Shown: positions 637 to 33,170, counted from the stretch's first letter. The stretch is 51,410 nt of DNA from Phycisphaerae bacterium (GCA_049605375.1 JBMYUM010000001.1:1-51410); one strand, 5' to 3'. The notes: generated by a model from the sequence alone, not told the origin. Program-made: numbers and translations.

Positions 637-661
637 GACGTTGAAGAGAAGGAGAAGTCTT

Positions 662-1234
662 ATGAGATGGCGAGGGAGAATCGTTGGGTTGCTCGGGGTT
701 CCGTGCCTCATGCTCGCGAACTGCTCTGAGCAGGGAACGGAGACGCAGGCGATCGTCGATGTGCCGATGGAAAGCACGGACGATGCGTTCGCACCGACGG
801 ACTCGGTGGCTGCTGAAGAGATGGACAACGAAGAGGTTGTCGTTGAGGCGGATGACGTTTCGGAAGAGGGAGAGGCCGTTGTGGTCACGACGATTGAGCA
901 AAGCGGTTTTGCCGCACCCGCTGATCCACCGTCCGAGTTTACCTTCGATACGGTGACAGAGTTCGGTGTCTTTGCCAAGGTCGTCGACATGAACGGCAAT
1001 CCCGCATTCGACGTGACGTTGACCGCCGCAGCCATGAGAAATGGTGTTCCCGTTCAACTCTATCGCACCAGAACGGATACCGCCGGAGAAGCGGATCTGA
1101 TTGTCTCCAGACTCTGGGCTGACGACGTGATCACCGTCACGGCACGGAAGCCGTATTACCAGGAAGTTATCGTCGATGTCGTCATGGATGGGTCGATTGA
1201 AACCGAAGTCACTATCGAACTACCTCTGGAGTAA
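662..1234 (+). CDS. lipoprotein with acidic linker and beta-rich C-terminal domain
   Basis: ATG at 662 is preceded by AAGGAGA (648-654). The N-terminus MRWRGRIVGLLGVPCLMLANC looks like a signal peptide plus lipobox. An acidic stretch EEMDNEEVVVEADDVSEEGE follows, then a roughly 80-aa beta-rich C-terminus. The longer ORF call from 359 overlaps gene 1 and is unlikely. Confidence 0.6.
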   Translation: MRWRGRIVGLLGVPCLMLANCSEQGTETQAIVDVPMESTDDAFAPTDSVAAEEMDNEEVVVEADDVSEEGEAVVVTTIEQSGFAAPADPPSEFTFDTVTEFGVFAKVVDMNGNPAFDVTLTAAAMRNGVPVQLYRTRTDTAGEADLIVSRLWADDVITVTARKPYYQEVIVDVVMDGSIETEVTIELPLE

Positions 1235-1237
1235 GTC

Positions 1238-2812: not shown

Positions 2813-2871
2813 ATGAATGCCGGGCGGTTTGCAGACAACACCTGCAGGTCGGCTGAAGACGGATAACGATC

Positions 2872-4179
2872 ATGCGAAACACGATCATCAACTCGGAACG
2901 CGTGCTGCAACTGGCGATGCTCGTGTGGTTGTTGATGGTCCTGACGAATCTTCGTCCTCCGTGGCAGGGTCTGGTGTCAGACTCTGCGGTGCAGAATCTC
3001 GCAACGAAGCGCCAACTCATCTTTGGCGTTGGCGGCGTTGCGGGATTCATTTATTTGACATTCCGGGGAAGCTTCTACCGGGCCGTCCTCTGTTTCGTAC
3101 CCTGCCTGATGTGGTTGGGATACTGCTTCTTTTCGCTGGTATGGAGCCCGCAGCCGGCCCTCACCGTGAAGCGAAGCGCCGTGCTGTTGCTCGGCTACAT
3201 CATGATCGCAGCCTTCTCCGTCTCGTCGAAACGACCGCTTGCACTCTGCCAACGTTGGATCGTGCTCGTCACCGGGTTCCTGGCCGTCGGTTCCATCGGT
3301 GCGATGGTGGCGCTGCCCAAGATCTGCTGGAGTCCGCCGATGCGTGACGGGTTGGCCGGACTGACCAATCACCCCAACACGCTGGGAATCGCCTGCGGTA
3401 TCGGGTGGATTGCCTCATTGGGGTGGCACGGTCTTCATGGCTGGCGTTGGCTCTTTCTACAGGGGCTGCGACTCGCACTCTTCGCCAGTGTGATTCTCAC
3501 CGGTTCCAAATCGTCATTGATGCTGATGATCCTGGGAACCCTCGTCTACGCCATACTTGTCTCCGGTCGATACCGAAGATCCTTTATTCTTCTGGTGACG
3601 CCGGCTGTCCTTGCCATTGTTGGCATCATTGGACCAAACACGATCTTCGCAGAAGCCACCGGTGCCCTCGGACGCGATACCACCCTGACCGGTCGTACCG
3701 AACTGTGGGAACTGGTCTGGGCGGAAGCGATGAAACATCCGTGGGCCGGCACCGGCCTTGGCGCCTTCTGGGTTCCCATGAAGGGGTACGAACTGACAGG
3801 TACCTGGAACCCGCGTCAGTCCCACAACTCCTACCTCGACCTGTTCAATGAACTGGGTTTGGTGGGAGCGGTGTTCTTTATCCTCGCGTTTCATGGCGTG
3901 GTGGTACGTGCCATCTCGTCATTGCCGTTCCCCGAACCGGGACGGCGGGATCTTGATGGGGCACGTCGTGCGGCCATGCTCGCTTTCTGTGCCATGATCC
4001 TGTTCTACTATTCCATGCTCGAAACCTGCCTTATGAAGGTAGACAACTTTCCATTCCTGGCCCTGCTTTGGACGCTGATCTGCGTCTACCGCGAAGTCAT
4101 TGGGCTCGATGGAAGAGACAGGAGCGAACAAACCGTTGAAAGCCCTGTCATGGGCGGAGGAAGACTGTCGTGCGCGTAG
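2872..4179 (+). CDS. O-antigen ligase / Wzy-type polymerase-like integral membrane protein
   Basis: 435 aa and polytopic, with many hydrophobic segments. Has the loop typical of Wzy_C/O-antigen ligase proteins (TGRTELWELVWAEAMKHPWAGTGLGAFW ... SHNSYLDLFNELGLVGAVFFILAF). Confidence 0.75.
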   Translation: MRNTIINSERVLQLAMLVWLLMVLTNLRPPWQGLVSDSAVQNLATKRQLIFGVGGVAGFIYLTFRGSFYRAVLCFVPCLMWLGYCFFSLVWSPQPALTVKRSAVLLLGYIMIAAFSVSSKRPLALCQRWIVLVTGFLAVGSIGAMVALPKICWSPPMRDGLAGLTNHPNTLGIACGIGWIASLGWHGLHGWRWLFLQGLRLALFASVILTGSKSSLMLMILGTLVYAILVSGRYRRSFILLVTPAVLAIVGIIGPNTIFAEATGALGRDTTLTGRTELWELVWAEAMKHPWAGTGLGAFWVPMKGYELTGTWNPRQSHNSYLDLFNELGLVGAVFFILAFHGVVVRAISSLPFPEPGRRDLDGARRAAMLAFCAMILFYYSMLETCLMKVDNFPFLALLWTLICVYREVIGLDGRDRSEQTVESPVMGGGRLSCA

Positions 4180-5381
4180 CCATGCTGGTTAACATCTTGA
4201 GTCCTTATCGAATTCCTCTGTTCCGTGATCTCCAGGACACGAACGGCTGGAACTTCAAGGTTTTCACCTGCGCGGAAACAGAAAAAGGACGAGACTGGAC
4301 GATCGAAGCCGACGGGCTGCAGGTCAAGCGGTCGTGGAGTCTGTCCTGGGTTCGAACCATCAAGCGAAAGGGGGCAGTCGACTTCACACAACGGCTGACC
4401 TATCACTTCCCATTCGGCGTACTTTGGGATCTGATGCGCTTTCGACCCGATGTGGTCGTCAGCGCCGAACTGGGCGTTCGAACCTTCCTGGCCGTCCTGT
4501 ATTCCATGCTGTTCCGATCTCAGTTGATCATCTGGTGGTACAGCACGAAGGTCAGCGCGCAGGGTTCGTCCTGGCGGCAGTGGCTCCGACGTCAGATGTT
4601 GAATCGAGCGGATGCGGTCATTGGTATGGGAACGGATGCGCGGCGCATGCTGAAGTCCCTGGACGTTCCGGAAGAGAAGATCTTTGACACGATGAATGCG
4701 TCACCGGTGGCGCCTCGGCAGACGCCCGAAGGCGTCGGCAAACTGACGGTCGAAGAAACTCACTACCTGCGGGAAAAAATGAGCGCGAGGCAGATCGCCG
4801 CGTTGGATGGTCGTCGCATTGTCTGTTGTCCGGGCCGCCTGATACCCGTCAAGGGAACGCTTGATGTGTTGCAGGCTTGGCGTTCACTGCCCCAGGAAAT
4901 ACGAGACCTGTGGGCCCTGGTCATTGCCGGAAACGGTCAATACAAAGAAGACGTCGAGGCCGCAAGCGAGCAGGATCCATCAATTCTCTATGTTGGCCAT
5001 CTCGACGGTGAAGAAATGGCGGATCTCTATCATGTCAGTGACCTGGCACTGTTCAATTCCTACGGCGACGTCTGGGGTCTGATTGCGAATGAAGCGATGT
5101 CGTGCGGTGTGCCGGTCCTCTCATCAGTCTACGCAGGTTGCACGGTTGACCTGATTGAGCATGCAACCAACGGTTGGCGTTTTCGTCCGGATTCGCGGTA
5201 CGAATTCAGGACGACGCTGGAGGCTGCGATGCGCCATCCTGATCTCGCGGGTGTCGGTGAGCGCGCCCGTGAGACTCTGCGTGCTTTTACAATTGGTCGC
5301 ATGTCGCTCGGTATTCGCGAGGCCGTGAACCGAGCGACGACCGGCGGTGTCGATGTACGTGCAGAGGTTGATCACGCTTAG
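4170..5381 (+). CDS. GT4-family glycosyltransferase
   Basis: 403 aa. GTG start is 8 nt after GGAGG (4157-4161). N-terminus MRVAMLVNILSPYR. C-terminal Glycos_transf_1 signature GDVWGLIANEAMSCGVPVLSSVYAGCTVDLIEHATNGWRF. It overlaps the upstream gene by 10 nt, which suggests an operon. Confidence 0.85.
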   Translation: MRVAMLVNILSPYRIPLFRDLQDTNGWNFKVFTCAETEKGRDWTIEADGLQVKRSWSLSWVRTIKRKGAVDFTQRLTYHFPFGVLWDLMRFRPDVVVSAELGVRTFLAVLYSMLFRSQLIIWWYSTKVSAQGSSWRQWLRRQMLNRADAVIGMGTDARRMLKSLDVPEEKIFDTMNASPVAPRQTPEGVGKLTVEETHYLREKMSARQIAALDGRRIVCCPGRLIPVKGTLDVLQAWRSLPQEIRDLWALVIAGNGQYKEDVEAASEQDPSILYVGHLDGEEMADLYHVSDLALFNSYGDVWGLIANEAMSCGVPVLSSVYAGCTVDLIEHATNGWRFRPDSRYEFRTTLEAAMRHPDLAGVGERARETLRAFTIGRMSLGIREAVNRATTGGVDVRAEVDHA

Positions 5382-5819: not shown

Positions 5820-5840
5820 CCCCTTGCACAAGGGGGTTTT
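5820..5840. terminator. hairpin abutting the integrase stop (possible bidirectional terminator)
   Basis: CCCCTT (5820-5825) / loop GCAC / AAGGGG (5830-5835), followed by GTTTT on the plus strand. On the minus strand it sits directly after the int stop codon (5839-5841). Confidence 0.3.
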
Positions 5841-7107
5841 ATGAATTCGCTGAGGCACTGTACGCCGACGTGTTCACCATGAAATTGTTGAGCAAAGTTA
5901 CGGTGTTTTTATTCTGGTCTGGAAACAGATGGCCGTAAGTATCCATGGTAAGCGTGATGGTCGAGTGGCGCATGATTGACTGAATTTCCTTCGGGTGGGC
6001 GCCCGCTTGTGCAAGCCAGGCCCCGCACGTGTGACGAAGGGAATGAAATACCAACACCTCGCCTTCCTCATTCGTCGGCAACAGCAGGTCGCTCTCCATT
6101 CTGCGCCGACTCTCGTCAGGGTCCGCCTTGGCTTCTTCGAGCCACTTGGATCTTGCAAAGGCCAAGTCGCGTTGGATGATTGTAGACCAGCGTGAATGCC
6201 GGTTAAAGCTAAACACCTGGTCACCCTTCTTCTTCCCCTGTACATGCTGTTCAATTTCATTCGCAAGATCGGGTAAGATGTACTGTCTGGCATCCTTTGA
6301 ATCTTTGGTGGAAGATCCGACGATCAATACGAATGGGCTTTCGCCGAAAAAGACCTTGCCCACCTTCAAGCTACGAAGCTCGCCAGCACGCAATCCCGTC
6401 TGTATAGCCATCGCGTAGAGTAGCGATCGTTCTGTGCCGGTGGCCTTCAAGTGCGTTGGCGCAAGTTTGGTGTACTTCTTCAACAGCAACCATTCGTCAG
6501 GGAGAAGCATTCGCCGCTTAATAACAGTCTCGATTGGTGGCGTCGATACGGTAAGAAGCGGGTCGGCTGACAGGTGTCCGTTCCTGGTGAGCCATTTCGT
6601 AAAGGCCTTGATTGCCCAAATCTTGTACCGGAGAGTTCGCGGCGCCAGCCGCTGCTGCATTTCAGCGGAGCATCGAAGAACATCTTCGGCGCAAATGTCG
6701 CGGACGAATTGCCATTGACTGAATTTGACGAACTCCGATAGGGCGAACGTGGACTGCGAAATGTGGGTGGGGTTTGAACGAAGTCGCAGATGGTCTCGAT
6801 AATTCTCGATGTGTTGATTGAGTTCGATCTTGGAGCTGGCGATTCGGGCCTCGATAAGCCGTAGTTTCGCCAGTTTATTTAGACGACGGCCATCGAGGTT
6901 GTCCAGCCATGCAATGATGTCTGGGTCCATTGGGGCCCCCACAGCAGCCTGGGCAGAAAGGCGTTCAAGCATGTCCGCTAACTTTTCGGTTGATCGTCTG
7001 TCGGCGTACCCAGCCCAAGACATCCATATGCCCGACATGTGGTTCTTCCATTTGAAATGCCAGTTCTTTGCGGGTTTTCCCCTTACCTTTCGTTTGTAAA
7101 CTCTCAT
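5839..7107 (-). CDS. int: tyrosine recombinase / phage integrase
   Basis: The C-terminal catalytic region has HSLRHTCGAWLAQAGAHPKEIQSIMRHSTITLTMDTYGHLF (H-x-x-R ... Y) and an upstream LRAGELRSLK Arg box. The ATG at 7107 lies 10 nt after AGGAGG, so I prefer it to the GTG at 7116. Confidence 0.93.
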   Translation of the reverse strand: MRVYKRKVRGKPAKNWHFKWKNHMSGIWMSWAGYADRRSTEKLADMLERLSAQAAVGAPMDPDIIAWLDNLDGRRLNKLAKLRLIEARIASSKIELNQHIENYRDHLRLRSNPTHISQSTFALSEFVKFSQWQFVRDICAEDVLRCSAEMQQRLAPRTLRYKIWAIKAFTKWLTRNGHLSADPLLTVSTPPIETVIKRRMLLPDEWLLLKKYTKLAPTHLKATGTERSLLYAMAIQTGLRAGELRSLKVGKVFFGESPFVLIVGSSTKDSKDARQYILPDLANEIEQHVQGKKKGDQVFSFNRHSRWSTIIQRDLAFARSKWLEEAKADPDESRRRMESDLLLPTNEEGEVLVFHSLRHTCGAWLAQAGAHPKEIQSIMRHSTITLTMDTYGHLFPDQNKNTVTLLNNFMVNTSAYSASANS

Positions 7108-7233
7108 GAAGTACACGCCTCCTGTTCGATCCTAGAATTGTCCGAATAGTAAGTTTAAGCAGTGGGCGCCATGCCGGTTCCAGCGACATGGCGCCCGGAC
7201 AACACAACGCCCTCCAGGACAAGGAGAAACGCC

Positions 7234-7452
7234 ATGCGTGTCAGATTTGCAATTGCAGCCGTCGTCATTGCGGCGGCCGCAGTCTTGTACATGAGTAGCA
7301 CTGGCAGAGCCGACGGCCCGCCAACTCAGAATTTTGTTTGCTGCCAGGACCTATCTGGGGCATGCCTGAGTCGGCCCGACTACATTGGGTGCGGCGAAGG
7401 CGAATACCCTGTCGAATGTCCGTGCAAGAAGCCCGGCACTAGAGCGGACTAA
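7234..7452 (+). CDS. small secreted Cys-rich protein (cargo gene)
   Basis: ATG 7234 follows AAGGAGA (7221-7227). 72 aa with signal-like N-terminus MRVRFAIAAVVIAAAAVLYMSSTGRA. The mature part has 6 Cys: VCCQDLSGACLSRPDYIGCGEGEYPVECPC. Its 3-prime end overlaps the convergent kinase gene by 14 nt. Confidence 0.55.
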   Translation: MRVRFAIAAVVIAAAAVLYMSSTGRADGPPTQNFVCCQDLSGACLSRPDYIGCGEGEYPVECPCKKPGTRAD

Positions 7453-9004
7453 GCCACGACTGGGCCTTGCCGCGCATCTCCGCCTGTGTATCACGGAGCG
7501 TGGCAACGCGCTCCATCAACGGCACCAAATTGGGAAGTCGGTTTCTGATCTCACTGAAGTGGGGGCGAAGCCCCCACTCTTTGTACATTCCAGAGCCATG
7601 CTTTGCGATCGCGTCGACATCGAGGTGGCACCACCGCTTCATCTCGTCTCGAATCTCAACTAGCAAGTCCAACGCATCACCTTCAACGGAATCGAGGTGA
7701 ATCGAGAATACACCATCAAGCAGTGGGTCGATTCCCGGAATATCACGGCCATCCTCTATCCAATGGGCCATACGGTCAGAAGGTGGCATCATCGCGATGG
7801 AGTCGTAGAGCATGTTCATTGCAGTTACAGCGCCGCTTACTGTACTTAAGTGCTGGGCTTCGCCTATCTTCGAGATCAAGATGTCGCGAGCGACAGTTGC
7901 TTTTTCGAAGTACTGGTCTTCCTCTTTCCGCCAAGCATGAATCTTGCATTCGTAAGGGAGTACGTTGTAGTTCATGAGTGCGGCCTCTCTGATTGCCGCA
8001 CGAACTGAAATTGTGGCGATCAGCGTGACTGCAATACATGCGGCAAGTCCGCACGCTGCCTTAATCCGATGACGTCGCAGGAACCATCCGGCTCGCCGAT
8101 GCGGCGCCCGGAGCTTCGCTGTAATTGATTCACCATTCAGGTAGCGTTCGACATCTTTCCTGAGAGCTGAAACCGTAGGATAACGGTCTTTCTGCTTCCA
8201 AGCAGTAGCCTTCTGCACGATTGCATCGAGTTCGGCTGGCGCTCTTTTGTTGCGTTGGCGAACAGTCGGAAACGGTTGACCGTTCTTCCAGAAGTCGGAC
8301 ACTTCAGTGTCATTCAGACCAAAGTATGGATGATGATCGGAAACCATCATGTATAGGATGATTCCCAGAGCGAATACGTCGCATTGTTCGTCAGCTTCGT
8401 ACTTCTTCAGTTGCTGTGGCGATGCATAATATTTGGTTCCGACGAATGCCCTGATTTCTGTATTCGCGTACCGAATAGGAGACTCTCTCTGGCGCGCCAA
8501 ACCAAAGTCTAGAACAGTCGGATGGTCTGCATCATCCACCAAGATGTTTGACGGTTTCAGATCACGATGGACGATCCCTTGGCTATGTGCGTACTCGATC
8601 GCGAAGCAAATTTTCTGAAACACTGGAAGCCTTTTGCCTCGGAGCGTTTCGATCATTTCGTTTCGATCAAGTTTGGGTTGCCCACACATCCAGAGTTCAA
8701 TGTCGCATCCCCTGATTAGCTCCATCGCGATAAACTGCTTACTGTGCGGAGCGCCATGGTCGAGGATCTTCACAATAGAAGGATGATCTAGCTGTCGAAC
8801 GATCCTGATCTCTTCTTCAAAGCGGACTCGGTCTTCGACAGTGGCGAGCTGCACGTCTCGTACGACCTTGAGTGCTACTCGTTCGCCAGATTGAACGTTG
8901 GTGGCAACATGGACCGAGCTCTGCGAACCTCGCCCCAGGTGCGTCTCCAGCAAGTACTTGTCGATCACAATGCGACTAGGATCAATTTTGGCTATTGCTG
9001 GCAC
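7439..9004 (-). CDS. transmembrane Hanks-type Ser/Thr protein kinase with extracytoplasmic C-terminal domain
   Basis: 521 aa. GTG start is 6 nt after GGAGAG. Kinase motifs: GRGSQSSVHVA, ALKVV, HRDLKPSNILV, DFGLAR, SPQQL. One TM segment (ACGLAACIAVTLIATISV), then about 190 aa of unknown domain. Spot count of one 60-nt line (8341-8400) gives about 45 percent GC, against about 60-68 percent in structural genes. Confidence 0.9.
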   Translation of the reverse strand: MPAIAKIDPSRIVIDKYLLETHLGRGSQSSVHVATNVQSGERVALKVVRDVQLATVEDRVRFEEEIRIVRQLDHPSIVKILDHGAPHSKQFIAMELIRGCDIELWMCGQPKLDRNEMIETLRGKRLPVFQKICFAIEYAHSQGIVHRDLKPSNILVDDADHPTVLDFGLARQRESPIRYANTEIRAFVGTKYYASPQQLKKYEADEQCDVFALGIILYMMVSDHHPYFGLNDTEVSDFWKNGQPFPTVRQRNKRAPAELDAIVQKATAWKQKDRYPTVSALRKDVERYLNGESITAKLRAPHRRAGWFLRRHRIKAACGLAACIAVTLIATISVRAAIREAALMNYNVLPYECKIHAWRKEEDQYFEKATVARDILISKIGEAQHLSTVSGAVTAMNMLYDSIAMMPPSDRMAHWIEDGRDIPGIDPLLDGVFSIHLDSVEGDALDLLVEIRDEMKRWCHLDVDAIAKHGSGMYKEWGLRPHFSEIRNRLPNLVPLMERVATLRDTQAEMRGKAQSWLSPL

Positions 9005-13388: not shown

Positions 13389-14234
13389 TTGAGCCTGATA
13401 CCCAGCAAACCAATCACCGACCGAACATTTGTCGCGGACGTTCATCGCCTGCCCTTGTGTGATGACAGCGTCGACCTCGTGTTCTGCTCGCCGCCGTATG
13501 AGGACGCGCGAGGCTACGGCATGGATTTCAAGATCAGTGGCGGTGATTGGGTGGACTGGGCGTATCAGGGTTTCGTTGAGTGTTTGCGCGTTTGTCGCGG
13601 CTTGGTTGCTTGGGTCGTCGAGGGACGCACTCGACAGTTTGGATGGAGTGCGACTCCGGTTCTGCTTGCTGCACGATTGCATGAGGCCGGATATGCACTA
13701 CGGAAGCCGCCCATCTTTCATAGGGTTGGCATTCCAGGTAGCGGTGGACCCGATTGGCTTAGGAACGACTTCGAGTTGGTCGTTTGTGCCCAGCGCGTGA
13801 AAAAGCGACTGCCGTGGTCTGACAATACCGCGATGGGGCACGACCCCAAATACCCTCCAGGGGGCGTTCCTTCGCATCGCACGCCAAGCGGCGCACGAGT
13901 CAATCGGAGTCGGCGTCGTCGTGGTGACGGCTACGAGGACCAGGTCTACAAGCCTCCAAAGAAGGCCAATCCAGGCAATGTCATTCGATGCAACGTCGGC
14001 GGTGGACATCTTGGCAGCAAGCTGGCTTACGAGAACGAAGCGCCCTTTCCAGAGAAACTGGCCGAGTTCTTCATCCGATCTTTTTGCCCGCCGGAGGGTG
14101 TCGTCCTCGATCCATTTGCAGGCTCGGGGACGACCGCAGCGGTCGCCGTCCAGTGCGGACGTCATTTCATTGCGAGCGATATTCGATCGTCGCAGATCGA
14201 GCTAACGCGGCGGAGGTTGGCTGAAAAAGGATGA
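13389..14234 (+). CDS. orphan beta-class DNA methyltransferase (N6-adenine or N4-cytosine)
   Basis: Motif IV DLVFCSPPYEDARGY is near the N-terminus. Motif I VLDPFAGSGTTAAVAVQCG is near the C-terminus. This IV-before-I order is the beta class. TTG start. No restriction endonuclease-like neighbour. Confidence 0.85.
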   Translation: MSLIPSKPITDRTFVADVHRLPLCDDSVDLVFCSPPYEDARGYGMDFKISGGDWVDWAYQGFVECLRVCRGLVAWVVEGRTRQFGWSATPVLLAARLHEAGYALRKPPIFHRVGIPGSGGPDWLRNDFELVVCAQRVKKRLPWSDNTAMGHDPKYPPGGVPSHRTPSGARVNRSRRRRGDGYEDQVYKPPKKANPGNVIRCNVGGGHLGSKLAYENEAPFPEKLAEFFIRSFCPPEGVVLDPFAGSGTTAAVAVQCGRHFIASDIRSSQIELTRRRLAEKG

Positions 14235-24647: not shown

Positions 24648-25316
24648 ATGGCAAAGCGGCGCACCACGAGCAAAAGAGCAAAGGGCACACGTCGAAAGCC
24701 CGAAAACGACCTGGAAACCCTGCTGCAGAAGCATTCCGCCGGGGAAAAGCTGTCGCAAGCGGAGCAGCGGCGAGTCGCGAAATTCCGGCGGGAAGTGATG
24801 CCCGACCTGGTCTTCGAGTACCTGAAGCAACTCCCAAAGGGTGACTACGAGAGTGTGACCGGGCGGGATCGGCGGATGCTCGATGCCCAGGCGCACCGAT
24901 GGGGGCTACCGCTGTCCGGCGAGACGCTCGATGTAGTTGCGATTCTCCGGGCATTTCACGACTTCGTGGGCGAGCATGCCAAGACGATTCGTGCGGCCGA
25001 GCGTGTGAAAGTCGACACCAAGGACGTTTCGAAAGCCAAACTGCGGCTTTACCTGGCCAAAGCCAAGCGGGAGGAACTCGCCTACGAGCGAGATCGGGCG
25101 GCCCTGGTCCCTCTGGATATGGTCGAAGAGGTCTTCATCGAAACGGCCGGCGTGCTTCGTCGCCACGGCGATTGGCTCGGCAAGCGAAAACTCCGCGATG
25201 CCCACCGTGAACACGAACGGACATTGCAAAGCGTGAAGCGGATCGGCCGGCGGCTGTTTGCGAAGCTCGATCCGCACAAGGATGAACCCGACGATGACGC
25301 TGACGGATCGGACTAG
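24648..25316 (+). CDS. terminase small subunit (by position and composition)
   Basis: 222 aa. Very basic N-terminus (MAKRRTTSKRAKGTRRK), helical, acidic tail. Lies immediately upstream of the GpA-type TerL and overlaps it. Confidence 0.6.
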   Translation: MAKRRTTSKRAKGTRRKPENDLETLLQKHSAGEKLSQAEQRRVAKFRREVMPDLVFEYLKQLPKGDYESVTGRDRRMLDAQAHRWGLPLSGETLDVVAILRAFHDFVGEHAKTIRAAERVKVDTKDVSKAKLRLYLAKAKREELAYERDRAALVPLDMVEEVFIETAGVLRRHGDWLGKRKLRDAHREHERTLQSVKRIGRRLFAKLDPHKDEPDDDADGSD

Positions 25317-27348
25317 AGAGCCTTGCGGATGCGGTTCCGGTGAGGAATACCGGTGGTGCCACGGTCACGTGGGGTTCCATCGGATCTTCGATCGGTTCGT
25401 GGAACTGGCGCGATCCCCGGAAGTACGCAGCATGCTCGAGTTCGCATGCGAGGAAATTGTCATTCCCGACGGCCCGTTCAAGGGCATGAAATTTGATCCC
25501 GAGAAGCAGCCCTACACCAAGCTGTGGTTCGATGCAGTGGATTCCGGAAAATGGCGTCGATTCGTCGTGACTGCACCCAGCCAGAGCGGGAAGACGCTTT
25601 GTGCATTCGTCATTCCGATCCTCTACCACCTGTTTGAGATGGGCGAGACGGTGATCTGCGGCATCCCGGATATGAGCATGGCGGGCGACAAGTGGTTCCA
25701 GGACCTGCTGCCGGTGATCAAATCGACGCGGTACGCGAAACACCTGCCTGCCAAAGGCGGTGGAAGCAAGGGCGGTAAGGTGACCGCCATCCGGTTTACC
25801 AACGGCGCGACGCTTCGATTCATGTCCGGCGGTGGTGGCGACAAGTCGCGTGCCGGCTACACCGCACGCGTCCTGGTCATCACCGAGACTGACGGTATGG
25901 ACACACCGGGCGAAGCTTCGCGCGAAGCCGACAAGATCAGCCAGCTGGAGGCCCGTACGAATTCATATGGTGATGACGCCTTGGTCTTCATGGAGTGCAC
26001 CGTCACGGTCGAAGAAGGCCGGACTTGGAGTGAATACGACACCAACAGCACCCGATCGGAAATCATGGGGCCGTGCCCGTACTGCAAGGAATACGTGTGC
26101 CCGGAACGCGACCACCTGCTCGGCTGGCAGGAGGTCGATTCGATCATTGAGGCCCGCGAGCGTGCAAAATTCCATTGCCCCGATTGCGGACACGCACTGT
26201 CCGAACGTGACCGCGAGCGGATGAACAACAAAGCCAAACTGCTCCACAAGGGCCAAGAGCTGTCTGACAAGGGGAAGATCAGCGGCGATCCGCCGTTAAC
26301 CGACACCTTGGGATTTAGGTGGAGCGGTTTCCACAACTTATTCACGTCGCCCGCGAACCTCGGCGGCGAAGAGTGGCGCGGTTCTCGTGCCGAAGACGAG
26401 GACACGGCCGACAAGCGTCTGCGGCAATTCTACTGGGCGATCCCGTACGTACCGCCACGGCTCGATACCACACCGCTGACCACGGCCGAGATCATCAAAC
26501 GAACCTCGAAGCTGGTGAAGGGTAAGGTACCGGAAGACTGCGACTTCCTGACCTGCGGAATCGACCTGGGCGATCACATGATGCACTACTGTGTGGTTTC
26601 CTGGAGGAAGGACTTCACGGGCCACGTCGTTGACTATGGCATCATTGGAATCCCCAGTGACCACATGGCGGTCGAGAAGGCGATTTTGCTGACGCTGCGA
26701 GAGTTCCGGGAGACCGTATTGAGTGGGTGGGCCTGGAGTGAAAGAAACCGCGTACCTGATCAAGTCTGGATCGACGCCGGTCACAAGGGCGACGTCGTCA
26801 AGGCGTTCTGTCGCGAGAAGGAATCATTCAGGCGGTTCATGCCAGTGTACGGTCGATCCTCGGCTCACCGTGACATGAAAGCGTATATGCACCCCGAGAA
26901 GGCTTCAAAGGGGGGAGTTGCCAGGGTCGGCGAGCGGTACTACGTGAAATCCAGCGGCGGGGCATGGGTTATTTTCGTGGACGCGAACCATTGGAAAACC
27001 CGTGTACACCAGGCGTTGCGTACACCTGCCGATTCGCCGGGTGCTTTGACTCTGTTCTGGACAAACGACAGTCGCAAGCTCCATCGCGAATTTGCAAAAC
27101 AGGTCACGGCGGAGAAGAAAGTCGAGGTCTTTGAACCCGGCAAGGGTACCACGATTGCGTGGGAGAAGGTCAGACAGAACAACCACTATTTGGATGTGTC
27201 GTATTACTCGATGGCGGCAGCGCACCTCTGCGGTGCCAGCCTCATTGAACCAGAAACAAGGCCGAAGGAAGAGCCAACGGCGGAGTCGAGCACCGGTATC
27301 ACAATGCCGGATGGCCGGCCGTTTGTCATAACTGAAAGGACGCGATGA
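25282..27348 (+). CDS. terminase large subunit, lambda GpA family, with N-terminal SEC-C-like Cys motif
   Basis: Walker A-like VVTAPSQSGKTL. A GpA-like N-terminal region starts near MLEFACEEIVIPDGPFKGMKFD. Zinc-ribbon CPYCKEYVCPE ... HCPDCGH sits between the ATPase and nuclease parts, as in GpA. Start is ambiguous: ATG 25282, 25294 or 25432. Confidence 0.9.
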   Translation: MNPTMTLTDRTREPCGCGSGEEYRWCHGHVGFHRIFDRFVELARSPEVRSMLEFACEEIVIPDGPFKGMKFDPEKQPYTKLWFDAVDSGKWRRFVVTAPSQSGKTLCAFVIPILYHLFEMGETVICGIPDMSMAGDKWFQDLLPVIKSTRYAKHLPAKGGGSKGGKVTAIRFTNGATLRFMSGGGGDKSRAGYTARVLVITETDGMDTPGEASREADKISQLEARTNSYGDDALVFMECTVTVEEGRTWSEYDTNSTRSEIMGPCPYCKEYVCPERDHLLGWQEVDSIIEARERAKFHCPDCGHALSERDRERMNNKAKLLHKGQELSDKGKISGDPPLTDTLGFRWSGFHNLFTSPANLGGEEWRGSRAEDEDTADKRLRQFYWAIPYVPPRLDTTPLTTAEIIKRTSKLVKGKVPEDCDFLTCGIDLGDHMMHYCVVSWRKDFTGHVVDYGIIGIPSDHMAVEKAILLTLREFRETVLSGWAWSERNRVPDQVWIDAGHKGDVVKAFCREKESFRRFMPVYGRSSAHRDMKAYMHPEKASKGGVARVGERYYVKSSGGAWVIFVDANHWKTRVHQALRTPADSPGALTLFWTNDSRKLHREFAKQVTAEKKVEVFEPGKGTTIAWEKVRQNNHYLDVSYYSMAAAHLCGASLIEPETRPKEEPTAESSTGITMPDGRPFVITERTR

Positions 27349-27623
27349 TGGCGAAGAAACGACAAGACGAAGCGGAGGATGTCAAGTTTTCACTCTCATT
27401 GCCCGTAGAGCCTCCTAGTGAGACATCTTACAGTGCAACGGGAAGATTCCATGTGGACATTCGGCTTGGGCCCGAGGAATCACGCGTTCTGGCGGCCGTT
27501 CAGCAAGGACTCAATCGAAATGCGGCTCGCCTGACGAATGGACGCTTTGTCCAATCCCGTAGCGATGCGATCAGGTTTCTACTGCAGGAGATGGCCTCGC
27601 AGTACCCATCGAAAAATGTATGA
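27345..27623 (+). CDS. small protein, possible ribbon-helix-helix/CopG-like C-terminus
   Basis: 92 aa. ATGATG overlap with the TerL stop. SRSDAIRFLLQEMASQY resembles the second helix of RHH regulators; this is weak. One 60-nt line gives about 52 percent GC. Confidence 0.45.
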   Translation: MMAKKRQDEAEDVKFSLSLPVEPPSETSYSATGRFHVDIRLGPEESRVLAAVQQGLNRNAARLTNGRFVQSRSDAIRFLLQEMASQYPSKNV

Positions 27624-27671
27624 TGATGCCAAGAAGGAAATGGCATCAATCGGTCTACGGGATGGGAAAGA

Positions 27672-29060
27672 ATGTCCAGCATCTGGAGCACGCCGCTTAA
27701 TTCATTGACTTATGAAGACGTTCGTTGCTTCTGCGGCAAACGACTTCGCGAGAATCTGACTCTGGAATACAAAGAACGGTTTTCCGACGGGGGCGAGAAA
27801 GTCGCCAGGGAAGTCGCAGCTTTTGCAAACACACTTGGCGGGACGATCATTTATGGCGTGGTCGACAAGAATGGCAAGCCTGCTAAGGATTCGAATGGTG
27901 TGGATCTAAAGGAGAGCGATCATGACGCGATCGTGAGTGCGTGCCATTGCCATATTAGTCCTCCAGTCCAGGTGGAGGTGTCAGGCTTACTAAGCAACCC
28001 GGACGATCCTTCGGAATCCTTTATGGTGGTACGCGTGCCTGCAAGTCCAGAGCTGCATTTGGTCGAGGGCAAAGCTGGAATCTACGTACGGCAGGAGGAT
28101 CATTCGGAAGCATCAAGGGCTACAATTGATGTTATTTCCGCACTCATGGGAAAACGAAAGGACGTCATTAGCCAACAGGAAAAGCGAAGAGACGATGCCG
28201 CGGAGCGATTGAGAATGCCGGTCACTCATGAGATCGTAGTTCCCTCAGGCAGCAAATCTTGTTTCCTATCCTTGATGTTCGGTCCAAGGCTCGCATTCTC
28301 ACCCCTTTGCCGGAATGACGAACTCCGAGATCGACGCGAAGAGTATTGCGCCCAATTGACTTGGCGGGATGCGCGTTTGGGCTCGGGCACGTCATGTGCG
28401 CCATTTATGGCTGGGATGCCCGTATTAGGGATGGTTGACGGCATCTACGGGGTTAATCGAAATAGTCAATCGTCTGGGTCAGTTGACCGCTACGGTAATT
28501 TGGTCACTTTCTGTCATGTATTGTCCCCAATCAATAACCACGACGCACAACTTGGTAGATTGAACGATCATCGTGGACACGCTCTTGATGAGAATGGAAA
28601 TCTAGTCGGCGTGCATGCAATCAAGATCGGATTGCAAATCCTCGTGGCATTTCAAGCGATGCAAAAGATGATCACGACATTTCCCTATGTGGGCGAACTT
28701 CAACTGAAAGTTGTCGTTGAAGGCACACGCCATTTGCCCTTAGTTGGCACCAGAGCGCCGAGTGGTATGCATCCAATTATTGCAAGTAGCTTCAATGACG
28801 ATTGGGTTTCCGCTTCTATCAGCGTGCCAAGCGACGCTCTACGATCCTACGAACAGTTTGAACCATATTTTCGAGAGATCTTCACGAACATTCTCTGGTC
28901 TTGGGGCTGCACGAATTCCCAAGAGCTGGACGACGCCTTTTACGCCAACGAGTTCGCTTGTTTCGGCCGTGACACCTGTCGTTGCAAAAACCATAGCAAG
29001 CCCCGCAACCGCGAAAAGTGCTACTTCTGCGAAAAGGCCGAACATGAAGGAAAGTCGTAG
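27672..29060 (+). CDS. AlbA_2 (Schlafen-type) domain protein with uncharacterised C-terminal region
   Basis: 462 aa. The N-terminal pattern ENLTLEYKERF ... REVAAFANTLGGTIIYGVVDKNG ... FMVVRVPASPE matches the AlbA_2 / divergent-AAA_4 domain. About 300 aa follow with no motif I recognise. Ends with CFGRDTCRCKNHSKPRNREKCYFCEKAEH. Two 60-nt lines give 43-47 percent GC. Confidence 0.7.
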   Translation: MSSIWSTPLNSLTYEDVRCFCGKRLRENLTLEYKERFSDGGEKVAREVAAFANTLGGTIIYGVVDKNGKPAKDSNGVDLKESDHDAIVSACHCHISPPVQVEVSGLLSNPDDPSESFMVVRVPASPELHLVEGKAGIYVRQEDHSEASRATIDVISALMGKRKDVISQQEKRRDDAAERLRMPVTHEIVVPSGSKSCFLSLMFGPRLAFSPLCRNDELRDRREEYCAQLTWRDARLGSGTSCAPFMAGMPVLGMVDGIYGVNRNSQSSGSVDRYGNLVTFCHVLSPINNHDAQLGRLNDHRGHALDENGNLVGVHAIKIGLQILVAFQAMQKMITTFPYVGELQLKVVVEGTRHLPLVGTRAPSGMHPIIASSFNDDWVSASISVPSDALRSYEQFEPYFREIFTNILWSWGCTNSQELDDAFYANEFACFGRDTCRCKNHSKPRNREKCYFCEKAEHEGKS

Positions 29061-29298
29061 GTGCTCGTGCATCATCGCAAAGCATATCCGTTTTTCCAGG
29101 GAATCCGGCACGCGTGCACTCCGGGGATCCTAAACTTCGCACTCCCGTTCGCGATGTTGGCACGGGCACGTGGGTAGCCTTGGGGCGTGAACCAGAATGT
29201 TGTGACCTCAATGCCATTGACTATCTTCATTCGTGAACCTTGCGTTAACTGGATGCAGATAAGTGGAAGTCAGCAGACGTAGCGATCGAGGCGCAATG

Positions 29299-29835
29299 CT
29301 ATGGCTGGTTGGCAGCAGCCCATAGGTAAGGACAAGCTATTGCCAGCCCAGCTACGAATTCGAAGAGCGACATGATGAGCATCGTCGAGAAAAGGACGAT
29401 TGACCCCCGGAACCAAGTTGTTTGCTTCGGATTTGGGGTATGCCACATATTGTGGTCTAGCTCATTCGAATCCGGATACTTCCACTGTCCATCGAGTGCA
29501 CCAAATTCGGTTAGAATATTGGTAATCACTGGGTTGAATACATTGCGGCAATCGTGATCGACTCTGGCGATGTACCACCAAATGAAGCCCAAAAGGCTTG
29601 CAAATATCAAGATCAACCCTGCTGCCATTTTCCGGAAAATCTCGTCGTGATCGGGCATCGAATTCTTATTGAAGAACACATAGAGGCTGGCGCCTCCGAC
29701 GAAGGCCTGCGTTGTCCAGAAGGCAGTCCATCGCCGATACATCAGGTCGTCGGCATGCTTCCACTTATCCCATAGAACTCTTAGCAACCCTGCTTTTTCG
29801 CGTTTGCATAGTTTTTTCAGTTCGTACACGTCCAT
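29299..29835 (-). CDS. multi-pass membrane protein (convergent with the AlbA_2 gene)
   Basis: 178 aa. ATG follows GGGGGA. Four hydrophobic segments: WTTQAFVGGASLYVFF, AAGLILIFASLLGFIWWYIA, IVLFSTMLIMSLFEFVAGLAIA, and possibly a further one. AT-richer than its surroundings. Confidence 0.6.
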   Translation of the reverse strand: MDVYELKKLCKREKAGLLRVLWDKWKHADDLMYRRWTAFWTTQAFVGGASLYVFFNKNSMPDHDEIFRKMAAGLILIFASLLGFIWWYIARVDHDCRNVFNPVITNILTEFGALDGQWKYPDSNELDHNMWHTPNPKQTTWFRGSIVLFSTMLIMSLFEFVAGLAIACPYLWAAANQP

Positions 29836-29932
29836 TTGGTTCCCCCGAGCGTTAGTAATGATCGTTTCCTTCTAGGTGGGCATTTTATCACATTTGTCCA
29901 ATGAATCCGAACCTCGGGCGCTCCGGGCGCCC

Positions 29933-29962
29933 TTGACGCCGATATCTCGCCTGTGATATCTC
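29933..29962 (+). promoter_or_regulatory. sigma70-like promoter candidate restarting the head operon
   Basis: TTGACG (29933-29938), then TG-A-TATCTC (29954-29962) after an 18-nt spacer. GATATCTC is directly repeated (29941 and 29955). The hairpin GGGCGC/GCGCCC lies just upstream. The ATG at 29970 has no clear RBS. Confidence 0.25.
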
Positions 29963-29969
29963 CCCCGGC

Positions 29970-30251
29970 ATGGCCCTGACTGCGACCAGCACTGATGCCG
30001 AGATCTACGAGGCTTACGTGATGAATTCCTCGTATGAACGGAGCGGATCCATCAATGAGGCGCATGATTTCATTCAGGCGTCCCGCATTCTCTTGGTGCG
30101 GCGCCCCAAACGCGTGAAGCAGGGCGAGCAGGAGATTGACATCGACCTGACGCTTATTCCCGCAGAGATCAAAGCCGCTCGGCAGTGGATCGCGGTGAAC
30201 GACACGGGGGGGGGCGTGAGTTACGCAAGCTGTCAGTTCTTTCGAGACTGA
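29970..30251 (+). CDS. small head-completion/gpW-position protein
   Basis: 93 aa, immediately upstream of the portal, as gpW is in lambda. No motif recognised. Confidence 0.45.
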   Translation: MALTATSTDAEIYEAYVMNSSYERSGSINEAHDFIQASRILLVRRPKRVKQGEQEIDIDLTLIPAEIKAARQWIAVNDTGGGVSYASCQFFRD

Positions 30252-30289
30252 TGTCAGACAATTCGGTTCCAGACGGGGGTTGAGCACGG

Positions 30290-31849
30290 ATGCTCGCGGC
30301 CTTCAAAGCACTCATGGGCGTCTTTCAAGGTATGTCCGCAGACTATAAGGCTGCGGAAACCAACCGGAATGTGCGCCAGCCTCGCGGCTTGCCAAATAGT
30401 GGTGCCTCGGCCGATTGGCATTACCGCCGAGACCGTGATCTTCTGATCATGATGGAGCGATGCCGGCACCTCGACCGGGACGATGGGCTGATCGGTCAAG
30501 GCGTTGATCGAGCCGTCGCCAACACGGTCCAGGATGGATTTGCTCTCGATCCGAACACCGGAGACGAAAAGGTCAACAAGGACCTATCGGAACGGTGGAT
30601 CGATTGGTCCACGGATCCCCGACAGGTTGATCTTGCCGCCGAACTCAACTTCCACGACATGGAAGAAAAGGTGCTCCGCCACCGCTTTATCGATGGCGAC
30701 CATTTGGCCTTATGCAATCAGTCGGGTGCCTTGGAACTGGTCGAAGCGCATCGGATGCGCACCCCCAGATCTGAACAAGCGAACATCGTGCATGGCGTAG
30801 AGTTGGGCCCGGATCGAAAGCGTGTCGCATTCTGGCTGACGCGTGATGAGATCAATCCCCATTCGCCGCATCCCAAGACGACAGAAATGATTCGCGTGCC
30901 GGCGTACGATGGCGACCTGCGGGTTGCATTGCAAATCTACGATCCGAAGCGGGCGTCGCAGTCGCGAGGTGTTTCGGTACTCACGCCGGTGTTCGACATC
31001 ATCCAGATGTTTGATGACACGAATTTTGCGCGATTGGTGCAGCAACGAATTATCTCGGCGGTGGGGTTAGCGGTGACGCGCGAACTCGGATTCGAGGTGC
31101 CAAATGATTCGAACATCGGTGAAGAGTCGACTGAAGTAGGCCCCGATGGCAAACAACGGAAGATTACGCAGATGTCGCCCGGGGCCATTTACCGTGGCAA
31201 CCCCGGAGAAAAACTCGAAGTCCTATCGCCGAACGTCCCCGCACCGACGTATTTCGACTTTGCAAAAATGCAACTGACCATCGTCAGTGTGAATCTCGGA
31301 ATGCCGCTTCAAGTTCTCCTTCTGGATCCCAGCCAAACGAATTTCTCGGGTTGGCGAGGCGCCATCGACCAGGCTCGCATGGGGTTTCGGCGTAACCAGG
31401 GCTGGCTCAGGTCGAAGTTTCACGTGCCGGTCTATTTCTGGAAGGTGCAGCAATGGATGGACGAAGACCCGGTGCTTCGACGTGCTGCCGAGAGAAGCAA
31501 CATCAGGATTCGCAAGCACCGATGGAACGTGCCTTCGTGGCCATATATCGAGCCCCTTAAGGATGCCAACGCCGACCTGGTCCGCCTGAAGAACGGTCTG
31601 GTGTCTCCGCGCCGATTGCATGCCGAACGCGGTCGCGATTGGGATGACGTCTACGACGAGACGATCGAAGACAACGCCAGAGCCATTCAGGCTGCCATGG
31701 CGCGAGCCGTCCAGATCAATGACGAGGGGAATCCTGAGACGATTGGATGGCGTGATTTGCTTCCGAAACCAGCTGCCGAGGGTGCCCAGTCGGCGCCGCC
31801 GAATGATGATGCGCCCGCTCGAAAGGAAGATGATGCCGAAGACGAGTAG
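30290..31849 (+). CDS. portal protein, lambda family
   Basis: 519 aa. Position TerL - portal - S49 protease. Size, acidic C-terminus and conserved-looking core are consistent with lambda gpB-type portals. Family call is by pattern and synteny. Confidence 0.8.
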   Translation: MLAAFKALMGVFQGMSADYKAAETNRNVRQPRGLPNSGASADWHYRRDRDLLIMMERCRHLDRDDGLIGQGVDRAVANTVQDGFALDPNTGDEKVNKDLSERWIDWSTDPRQVDLAAELNFHDMEEKVLRHRFIDGDHLALCNQSGALELVEAHRMRTPRSEQANIVHGVELGPDRKRVAFWLTRDEINPHSPHPKTTEMIRVPAYDGDLRVALQIYDPKRASQSRGVSVLTPVFDIIQMFDDTNFARLVQQRIISAVGLAVTRELGFEVPNDSNIGEESTEVGPDGKQRKITQMSPGAIYRGNPGEKLEVLSPNVPAPTYFDFAKMQLTIVSVNLGMPLQVLLLDPSQTNFSGWRGAIDQARMGFRRNQGWLRSKFHVPVYFWKVQQWMDEDPVLRRAAERSNIRIRKHRWNVPSWPYIEPLKDANADLVRLKNGLVSPRRLHAERGRDWDDVYDETIEDNARAIQAAMARAVQINDEGNPETIGWRDLLPKPAAEGAQSAPPNDDAPARKEDDAEDE

Positions 31850-33170
31850 CACAACCTGCGCCAACATCAAAACCGAGATCGAGAAGCGCGGCCTGAAGCA
31901 CCTGGAACAGTACGCCGGTGCATGGGCAATTTACCCCCAGCACTTTAAAGCGATGTCGAGCCACATTCGTAGCGTTGACATCATCGCGCACGTGGACGCG
32001 CAGTCGGAGCTTCCCGGCGATAGTCGGTCGGCGGCCGATTCAACCTACGACGTCGAAGACGGTATCGCATTCATTGACGTTGTGGGTGTGTTCACCAAAT
32101 ACGGTTCGAGCTTTTCATCGATGCGTTACGGATCGCGCGGCATTCGTCGCCAAATTCGCAATGCGACGAATGACAGCAAGGTTCGGGGCATCATGCTCCG
32201 TTTCGATTCGCCCGGTGGAGCCGTTGCCGGCACCAGCGACCTGGCGGCCGATGTCAAACGTGCCGCTGAAGTGAAACCGGTTTACGGCTTCATTGAGGAT
32301 ATGGGCGCGTCGGCTGCCTACTACGTGGCCAGCCAATGCACCAAGCTCTACTGCAACACGGACGCGATTGTCGGTTCGATCGGCGTGCTCCTGATGGTCG
32401 AAGACTGGTCGGGTTTCTTTGCCGAGCAGGGCGTCAAGGTTCACGCCATTGCCACTGGTCCATACAAGGCCGCTGGTGCCTTCGGTACCGAGCTCACGGA
32501 CGAGCATAAGGCCGAACTACAGCGAAGCGTGGACGAGACGTTCGAGCCGTTTGCCCAAGCTGTGGCAGACGGACGCGGAATGACTCGCGAACGCGTTGCA
32601 GAGGTCGGAGATGGCCGCGTGTTCGTTGGAGACAATGCCAAGCGCGAAGGCTTGATCGACGAGGTCGCGAGTTTCGATACGGCCGTGGCGGACCTGCGGC
32701 AGCAAACCCATAAGAGTTCACGAAGGGAGACTTCCATGACAACAGAGCAAGTGACAACGCCGGCGGAACCGCCTAAGCCCAAGGCCGCCACCATCCAGGA
32801 GCTCAAGGCTGCATTCGAGGGCGGGGATGCGGAGTTTCGGGAGGCGTGCCTTGAGAAAGAGATGACGCTTTCCGAGGCAAAAGATGTCTGGATCAAAAAG
32901 CTGACCGGCAAGAACAAAGAACTCGGCGAACGTGTCGCTGAGCTCGAAGGGAAGATCACCGACCTCGAAAAACAGGTTGCCAGCAAACCGCGAGGCGTGG
33001 CAACGGTTGGCACTCGAAACCTTGCGGCCGGCGAGGGGACTGCGACGGCCGAAGTCGAGCGTCGGATCGCCGAACGCATGAAGCAGAACGAGTCCCGACA
33101 CGACGCACACAAGGCAGTGATGCTAGAGGATCCTGAACTTCAAAAGGCGTACCGCGCCGAAGTGGATTAG
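31803..33170 (+). CDS. S49-family prohead protease fused to scaffold-like C-terminal domain (lambda gpC/Nu3 arrangement)
   Basis: GIMLRFDSPGGAVAG and GFIEDMGASAAYYVASQC (catalytic Ser context) and GSIGVLL fit the SppA/S49 fold. The C-terminal approximately 150 aa are a charged coiled coil (ELGERVAELEGKITDLEKQ). Start is among ATGs 31803-31833, overlapping the portal end. Confidence 0.85.
   Translation: MMMRPLERKMMPKTSSTTCANIKTEIEKRGLKHLEQYAGAWAIYPQHFKAMSSHIRSVDIIAHVDAQSELPGDSRSAADSTYDVEDGIAFIDVVGVFTKYGSSFSSMRYGSRGIRRQIRNATNDSKVRGIMLRFDSPGGAVAGTSDLAADVKRAAEVKPVYGFIEDMGASAAYYVASQCTKLYCNTDAIVGSIGVLLMVEDWSGFFAEQGVKVHAIATGPYKAAGAFGTELTDEHKAELQRSVDETFEPFAQAVADGRGMTRERVAEVGDGRVFVGDNAKREGLIDEVASFDTAVADLRQQTHKSSRRETSMTTEQVTTPAEPPKPKAATIQELKAAFEGGDAEFREACLEKEMTLSEAKDVWIKKLTGKNKELGERVAELEGKITDLEKQVASKPRGVATVGTRNLAAGEGTATAEVERRIAERMKQNESRHDAHKAVMLEDPELQKAYRAEVD

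Follow-up and report, generated by a model that had tools for sequence, protein, structure and literature searches.

Prokaryotic Schlafen proteins (pSlfns) were described in 2025-2026 as single-gene defence proteins that combine a sensor with a tRNase (PMC13056530, PMC13462974). The survey of Perez Taboada et al. (Nat Microbiol 2026) lists 5,930 pSlfn proteins with the Ex4(E/D)xK motif, which is the motif that active Schlafens of prokaryotes and of humans have in common; fusion to other, putative sensor domains is seen in 97%, in 55 architectures, TATA-binding protein (TBP)-like fusions accounting for 1.5% and unannotated ones for 17% (PMC13056530). A defence gene lies within 10 kb of 69.6% of pSlfns while approximately 30% are without defence neighbours, and two members, EcoSlfn7 and RorSlfn5, protect E. 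coli, the latter sensing the tail assembly chaperone of phage T5 through a fused immunoglobulin (Ig)-like domain and cleaving tRNA (PMC13056530). The CRISPR-associated Schlafen CbCash, once switched on through cyclic tetra-adenylate (cA4), cleaves the T-loops and anticodon loops of tRNAs by means of residues E17, D22 and K24 (Weickert, Liu and Strecker, Nat Commun 2026; PMC13462974). The current study concerns a 51,410-nucleotide contig of a Phycisphaerae (Planctomycetota) metagenome-assembled genome (MAG; GCA_049605375.1, JBMYUM010000001.1:1-51410), the whole of which is referred to here as the window, and in particular an island between the terminase and portal genes of a prophage, where a 462-amino acid (aa) protein with the predicted domains of a pSlfn and a 178-aa membrane protein are encoded. 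Feature coordinates are collected in Table 1.

The 462-aa protein gives a single Pfam match, to PF04326 (AlbA_2), over residues 27-146 (E = 4e-16; 60 bits against a cut-off of 25.3), which bears out the AlbA_2 domain that an earlier note on this DNA had read from the stretches ENLTLEYKE and AAFANTLGGTIIYGV, both of which are present. When the sequences of the PDB were searched with a profile, CbCash (9ylu) was the best match (E = 2e-8), aligning over the whole nuclease domain with 'rEnlrLeYKre' on 'RETRKVDLKRE', such that E27, E32 and K34 fall on E17, D22 and K24; the same Ex4(E/D)xK motif also aligns to 'ESASIEFK' of SLFN13. Of the 33 family members compared, all (33/33) have E27 and K34, while 24 have E and nine have D at position 32, the invariant residues of the domain being E27, Y33, K34, N53, GG56-57, GV62-63 and R140. 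The AlphaFold2 (AF2) model obtained with the family alignment (predicted local distance difference test score (pLDDT) 91.3, predicted template modelling score (pTM) 0.89) comprises an alpha/beta N-domain, a 36-residue helix, which may be an oligomerisation element, a two-lobed alpha/beta C-domain and a small ribbon, and Foldseek paired the modelled N-domain with SLFN14, SLFN13, SLFN11, SLFN5 and the bacterial protein DIP2311 at probabilities of 0.99-1.0. NCBIfam and PHROGs returned nothing useful for this protein, a single PHROG 'helicase' match spanning the AlbA_2 part only.

The proposal that the AlbA_2 protein is of Schlafen type is upheld by its intact catalytic motif, and the family is now known to contain anti-phage tRNases (PMC13056530, PMC13462974). 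Judged by its sequence and model, the protein shows every feature by which the pSlfn class is recognised, and a function of that class is presumed for it. The earlier remark that the gene pairing was not recognised as a named system is therefore outdated for the nuclease, which fits the published single-gene pSlfn class, and the finding adds a further case of a known defence family rather than a new two-gene system.

The best-supported result of this study is that the island is a true cargo insertion between two small conserved genes. The element itself is a temperate phage integrated as a prophage, as is evident from its integrase, the host genes to its left and its lambda-like late module, and the flanks of the island had been correctly named as terminase and portal, since Pfam identifies a gpA-type TerL on one side and a lambda-family portal protein on the other. 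Homologues of this TerL number more than 1,200, are approximately 50% identical to it and belong mostly to Planctomycetota, and isolate phages share at most 23% identity with it. The comparison covered 83 related phage loci and drew on seven fetched contexts of TerL homologues and 79 IMG/VR contigs retrieved with a TerL profile, each of which was anchored by tblastn with TerL, the portal and the two small genes of 92 and 93 aa. In most relatives TerL, a gene of approximately 90 aa, another of approximately 95 aa and the portal follow one another, the interval spanning about 0.7-1 kb, and a minority have other cargo in this place. The distance from TerL to the portal is 2,942 bp in the window; its median among the 73 relatives with a portal downstream is 999 bp, and it is 1.3 kb or less in 54 loci. 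A homologue of the 93-aa gene is kept in 26 loci, 14 of which have gaps of 541-1,077 bp and the gene order TerL, 92-aa homologue, 93-aa homologue, portal, an 'empty' example being L080 (92-aa homologue at 1956-2186, 93-aa homologue at 2279-2575, portal at 2611), while in the other 12 the gap extends over 1.4-7.4 kb and is filled with unrelated genes. Among the products of this cargo are DNA methylases, a ParB-like and a lectin-like protein, an ATPase-GNAT protein and a GDSL lipase, besides many proteins without assignment.

Homologues of the 92-aa protein are encoded directly after TerL in L039 (40% identity), L042 (37%), L044 (32%) and many IMG/VR contigs, and those of the 93-aa protein directly before the portal in L042 (42% identity), L044 (39%) and 24 IMG/VR contigs. 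Since both genes hold the same positions in relatives, both belong to the phage backbone and the island is the spacer between them, a location that is specific to this Planctomycetota phage group. The three-gene island of the earlier note consequently retains its 462-aa and 178-aa genes and loses the 92-aa gene, which is conserved immediately after TerL, although the coordinates given for all three reading frames were accurate. What survives intact is the proposal of cargo inserted between the terminase and portal of a temperate phage, with an integrase present and a site that varies among relatives; the check suggested in that note, whether the site is empty or differently filled in related prophages, came out positive in the lengths and contents of their TerL-portal gaps. 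Neither the 462-aa nor the 178-aa gene was found in any of the 83 related phage loci. The further suggestion of a ribbon-helix-helix (RHH) fold for the 92-aa protein was not borne out, as it gave no Pfam match at E <= 0.1 and a PDB profile search with four homologues returned no RHH protein. An identity of the 93-aa protein, which occupies the position of lambda W, with gpW was also considered and set aside when the PDB profile search gave nothing.

The island also differs from the remainder of the contig in composition, its GC content being 50.9% against 56.4 +/- 2.1% for contig segments of equal size, which makes it the lowest-GC stretch of 2.3 kb on the contig (0.3% of such segments are as low), and third codon positions of the island genes have a GC fraction of 0.53-0.59, compared with 0.65-0.72 for those of the TerL and portal genes. 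The description of the island as AT-richer was thus right in direction, whereas the contrast of 43-47% with 68% had been taken from single extreme lines and the true difference is approximately 5.5 percentage points. No convincing repeats resembling attachment sites were found to flank the island, and the search for structured RNA within it gave no Rfam match. In its accessory genes between conserved genes, its deviating composition and its variably filled site the locus resembles the morons of other phages (lambda rexAB, bor and lom; P2 old, tin and fun), from which it differs in that the nuclease gene has no detectable private promoter or terminator.

An exhaustive HMMER search with the C-terminal 315 aa of the nuclease recovered 50 representatives among 1.84 billion proteins. 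Nearly all of these are 440-460 aa in length with a C-domain starting near residue 152, a uniformity that indicates a fixed architecture in a family that is approximately 30% identical overall. The full-length genomic relatives all reside in Planctomycetota/Phycisphaerae MAGs, every relative that could be placed is from Planctomycetota, and no member of the family was found in IMG/VR. Locus scans relied on a subset of 10 sequences, the full alignment of 33 being too diverse for this purpose, and the contexts of relatives were read from eight genomic or metagenomic loci (L001-L008) and 11 metagenomic loci (L046-L056), approximately 20 altogether. The neighbours differ in every context and none recurs on the 11 metagenomic contigs; the 462-aa protein is a single-gene unit without a conserved partner. 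One relative (L003) lies by fumarase and ABC transporter genes with an adjacent MNT/HEPN pair (PDC-S09), another (L004) by an acyl-CoA carboxylase gene, a PDC-S15 gene and PIN and HEPN toxin-antitoxin modules, and others by transaldolase and MutS2 genes (L005) or def/fmt (L006). In a groundwater Planctomycetota MAG (L008) a 1,484-aa TIR-CHAT-NACHT/NB-ARC-TPR protein is encoded directly upstream of the relative (237-4691) and looks like a defence-island neighbour. Defence-like neighbours were seen in three loci (L003, L004 and L008), a sample too small for statistics.

The approximately 300 aa that follow the AlbA_2 domain had been described as unrecognised sequence, and they indeed have no match in Pfam, NCBIfam, PHROGs or PADLOC; when 26 family members were submitted to Pfam, the C-terminal region gave matches to its zinc-ribbon tail only. 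That tail, noted earlier as CxC/CxxC (TCRCKNHSKPRNREKCYFCEK), is present, and its cysteines are kept in 26/26 of the members that have it. Conserved motifs of the C-domain itself are GP (204-205), DxFGN (272-276) and WxWG (409-412). Modelled by itself, the C-domain reached a pLDDT of 91.1 and a pTM of 0.90, and approximately 40 of the top 50 PDB structures returned by Foldseek were TBPs, at E >= 3e-3, probabilities <= 0.63 and template modelling (TM) scores of 0.2-0.3, no PDB structure matching at E <= 1e-3. Comparably weak matches to TBP-like proteins of giant viruses were obtained in BFVD, and in the model the second lobe has the element order S1-H1-S2-S3-S4-S5-H2, which is typical of a TBP-type repeat. 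The C-domain is thus possibly TBP-like, though unassigned. It was also considered as a second, degenerate Schlafen lobe, an idea that was rejected because the C-domain alone gave no Schlafen or AlbA matches.

The window protein shares with the published pSlfns an N-terminal Slfn/AlbA_2 nuclease with the Ex4(E/D)xK motif fused to a variable C-terminal domain in one polypeptide, and an existence as a single-gene unit in varied neighbourhoods that sometimes lie near defence genes; the TBP-like or unannotated fusion classes of the survey could include its architecture. It departs from them in a C-domain for which no sequence relatives can be detected beyond a family of approximately 50 members and which ends in a zinc ribbon, and in its position within a prophage head-module hot spot, its assignment to the class resting on sequence and model. 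CbCash is its best sequence match among solved structures, with the catalytic residues aligned, but a Csx15 cA4-binding domain and a type III CRISPR system control the activity of CbCash, whereas the window protein has a different C-terminal module and neither a CARF/SAVED-like domain nor a CRISPR context. The mammalian tRNases SLFN11, SLFN13 and SLFN14 share the nuclease fold and the catalytic motif, though in mammalian Schlafens the Slfn core is two-lobed and pseudo-dimeric and is accompanied by a linker and a helicase, while the window protein has a single Slfn lobe. The locus does not represent a new type of system; it is distinguished by its hot-spot position, a family restricted to Planctomycetota and the C-terminal module. 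For a phylum in which phages and defences are little studied, it places a Schlafen-type nuclease in a prophage's packaging/head module, it defines a clean hot spot in the TerL-portal interval, between two small genes, that can be mined in approximately 80 related viral contigs, and the confidently predicted but unassigned C-terminal domain of its family of approximately 50 members is a candidate new phage-sensing module.

We assign a probability of roughly 0.6 to the reading that the island is prophage hot-spot cargo whose main gene is a stand-alone pSlfn acting in defence. The effector would be the N-terminal Schlafen nuclease domain with its intact, putatively metal-dependent Ex4ExK active site, and the sensor or regulator would be the C-terminal module of approximately 270 aa together with the zinc ribbon. 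With RorSlfn5, EcoSlfn7 and CbCash taken as analogues, the protein would be inactive in the lysogen until the C-terminal module recognised a cue from a superinfecting phage, which may be a phage protein or a nucleic acid, whereupon the nuclease would cut tRNA loops, translation would stall and the burst of the invader would be reduced. That the substrate is tRNA, that a phage cue activates the protein and that the lysogen is protected are all carried over from the characterised proteins and are put forward here as likely by analogy. The 178-aa membrane protein would be encoded by an independent cargo gene that has a divergent promoter region to itself.

Several observations weigh against a defensive, stand-alone pSlfn. 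The window copy is the sole family member seen inside a phage, several relatives sit among housekeeping genes (fumarase, acyl-CoA carboxylase, def/fmt, MutS2), and a search of PADLOC v2 (2023), a database older than the pSlfn papers, with the four proteins gave no match at E <= 1. A sensor role is putative for the C-domain and drawn purely by analogy, the fold match being non-significant. The pSlfn gene also lies on the same strand as the late operon, 48 bp after the 92-aa gene, and nothing resembling a promoter or a terminator was detected in its surroundings, so that lysogenic and late expression are both possible and the gene could be a late lytic one. This keeps alive an account in which the nuclease gene is co-transcribed with the genes for late packaging and the enzyme works for the phage itself rather than protecting the lysogen, where it might degrade host or competitor tRNA or RNA during lytic growth or act on a co-resident element; the hot-spot cargo of L042 and L044 is likewise co-oriented with the late genes, and eukaryotic poxviruses carry Schlafen-like genes. 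We regard such an offensive role as unlikely, for the rest of the family consists of stand-alone chromosomal genes located outside phages, and an always-on late tRNase would harm the phage's own translation and would still need a regulator. Moreover, a sigma-70 scan of 27200-30400, which returned no sites against 3.0 expected by chance, does not cover Planctomycetota promoters, and the lack of sites is accordingly weak evidence. It is similarly doubtful, though conceivable, that the C-module is a sensor fold not described before, with Planctomycetota pSlfns as its only examples to date, and that the phage copy is expressed late, for phage-phage or phage-host conflict rather than host defence; a less likely variant of this reading would make the orphan membrane protein a lineage-specific partner.

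The protein might instead be a non-immune nucleic-acid binder or regulator, AlbA_2 and a TBP-like saddle both binding DNA or RNA, that merely travels as hitch-hiking cargo. The weak but consistent TBP-like matches of the C-domain and the housekeeping neighbourhoods just mentioned are in keeping with this, as are the names 'helix-turn-helix domain-containing protein' and 'ATP-binding protein' in the source annotation, but Pfam detects neither a helix-turn-helix (HTH) nor an ATPase domain, which marks these names as generic, and the strict conservation of the Ex4(E/D)xK triad in so divergent a family argues for a nuclease under selection, leaving such a role with only a small chance. The remaining alternative is that of the earlier note, a two-gene system in which sensing or cleavage falls to the Schlafen protein and its convergent neighbour acts as a membrane-disrupting effector or partner. 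The two genes are adjacent, are similarly low in GC (0.51 and 0.49) and are the sole contents of the island, and the membrane protein has a sub-threshold match to Pfam 8xMP (E = 1e-4). Against this, when all open reading frames (ORFs) of the window were compared by tblastn with the 19 relative-bearing loci L001-L008 and L046-L056 the nuclease alone was recovered; no relative of the membrane protein lies beside any of the approximately 20 nuclease relatives or in the 83 related phage loci, and no multi-transmembrane neighbour recurs. The genes are in addition convergent and form no operon, the membrane protein is an orphan, and published pSlfns act as single genes (PMC13056530). The pair is thus absent elsewhere, which the earlier note had itself named as grounds for abandoning the pairing, and we consider a two-gene system very improbable; the fallback offered there, two independent genes, is the better reading and agrees with the stand-alone pSlfn preferred here.

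Table 1. Coordinates of the principal features of the window (positions counted from its first nucleotide)
Feature	Position	Strand	Remarks
Wzy-type ligase and glycosyltransferase	1-5.4 kb		Host genes
Tyrosine integrase	5839-7116	-	
Ser/Thr kinase, then DNA methylase			Right of the integrase, ahead of the late module
Putative TerS	24648-25316		Lambda-like late module
TerL, gpA type	25258-27348	+	Pfam GpA_ATPase and GpA_nuclease; left backbone flank of the hot spot
92-aa backbone gene	27345-27623	+	Start overlaps TerL stop (ATGA); outside the island
Inserted cargo island	27624-29969	n/a	Spacer between small genes that are adjacent in 'empty' relatives
462-aa predicted pSlfn	27672-29060	+	Nuclease domain, long helix, two-lobed C-terminal domain, zinc ribbon
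Schlafen/AlbA_2 nuclease domain, aa 27-146	27750-28109	+	PF04326; motif E27...E32-Y-K34 encoded at 27750-27773
Long single helix, aa 152-187 (36 residues)	28125-28232	+	DSSP on AF2 model; joins nuclease to C-domain
Two-lobed alpha/beta C-domain, aa ~198-431	28263-28964	+	Putative sensor or regulator
Zinc ribbon, C436, C438, C450, C453	28968-29045	+	Weak zinc-ribbon Pfam matches in some members
178-aa orphan membrane protein	29299-29835	-	Convergent with the pSlfn gene, divergent from the head genes; ORF and hydropathy
Divergent intergenic region	29836-29969	n/a	Promoter-like and repeat sequences
93-aa backbone gene	29970-30251	+	Directly upstream of the portal, lambda W position; right hot-spot boundary
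Portal, lambda family	30290-31849	+	PF05136, E = 2e-58; right backbone flank
S49 protease	31620-33170		Late module

The 178-aa protein begins with a basic stretch of 35 aa. The number of transmembrane helices formerly given for it, about four, is best taken as an upper bound, since residues 70-92 and 141-175 (approximate limits; the latter accommodating one or two helices) are strongly hydrophobic while residues 36-55 are less so. Its match to Pfam 8xMP (PF24838, 'octameric membrane protein family') covers residues 18-121 at 22.6 bits against a threshold of 30, and a literature search on PF24838 found no papers. A word-index search, tblastn against INPHARED phages, an IMG/VR scan and comparisons with PDB sequences, PADLOC, PHROGs and NCBIfam produced no homologue other than the same phage in a second (Logan) assembly (L079). 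A role in superinfection exclusion would be a guess.

Because the membrane-protein gene is divergent from the head genes, it needs a promoter of its own in the divergent intergenic region. On the minus strand this region contains an extended -10-like element, TGATAAAAT (29890..29882), 47 nt upstream of the ATG of that gene. On the plus strand the promoter-like sequence reported previously is indeed present, as TTGACG (29933-29938), an 18-nt spacer and TATCTC (29957-29962), but it has a poor -10 element and fails the standard sigma-70 scan. It is overlapped by a direct repeat, GATATCTC, at 29941 and 29955, and the longer form GATATCTC(G/C)CC occurs twice, 14 nt apart, within 29941-29965, just upstream of the 93-aa gene; the repeat could be an operator or another regulator site. 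The spacer between the two convergent genes (29061-29298) folds no better than shuffled sequences (z = +1.18) and has no Rfam match.

Other genes of the prophage were also noted. Directly beside the integrase, a 521-aa eukaryotic-type Ser/Thr protein kinase is encoded on the minus strand (7439-9004; Pkinase E = 1e-42), which may serve the prophage as a further accessory or exclusion gene, and the early region contains an N6/N4 DNA methyltransferase (MTase) gene at 13389-14234 on the plus strand; no tRNA genes were found in the window. In related phages methylases are located either upstream of TerS, as ParB_N-MTase fusions (L040, L041 and L043), or in the TerL-portal hot spot (L042, L044 and L158). 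The former three loci, which are TerL relatives from Phycisphaerae, Anatilimnocola aggregata and a metagenome, share a conserved module of ParB_N-MTase, HARE-HTH, TerS-like and TerL genes and lack a portal over the next 6-8 kb downstream, where genes for an RHS toxin, SNase-domain proteins or glycoside hydrolases follow instead; they could represent prophages in decay or a different sort of element that carries TerL.

The closest TerL relative (L039, 80% identity) has, at 2784-4629, the 92-aa homologue followed by an SDH-type serine protease gene and a reverse-strand HicB-like antitoxin gene, with no portal before its contig stops at 4.8 kb. Homologous cargo proteins of approximately 390 aa, with ABC_tran-like and GNAT regions and a partial PADLOC mad3-like match, are encoded at the same hot spot in two different phages (L044, 5047-6234; L107, 13660-14835), which suggests that certain cargo types recur at this site.

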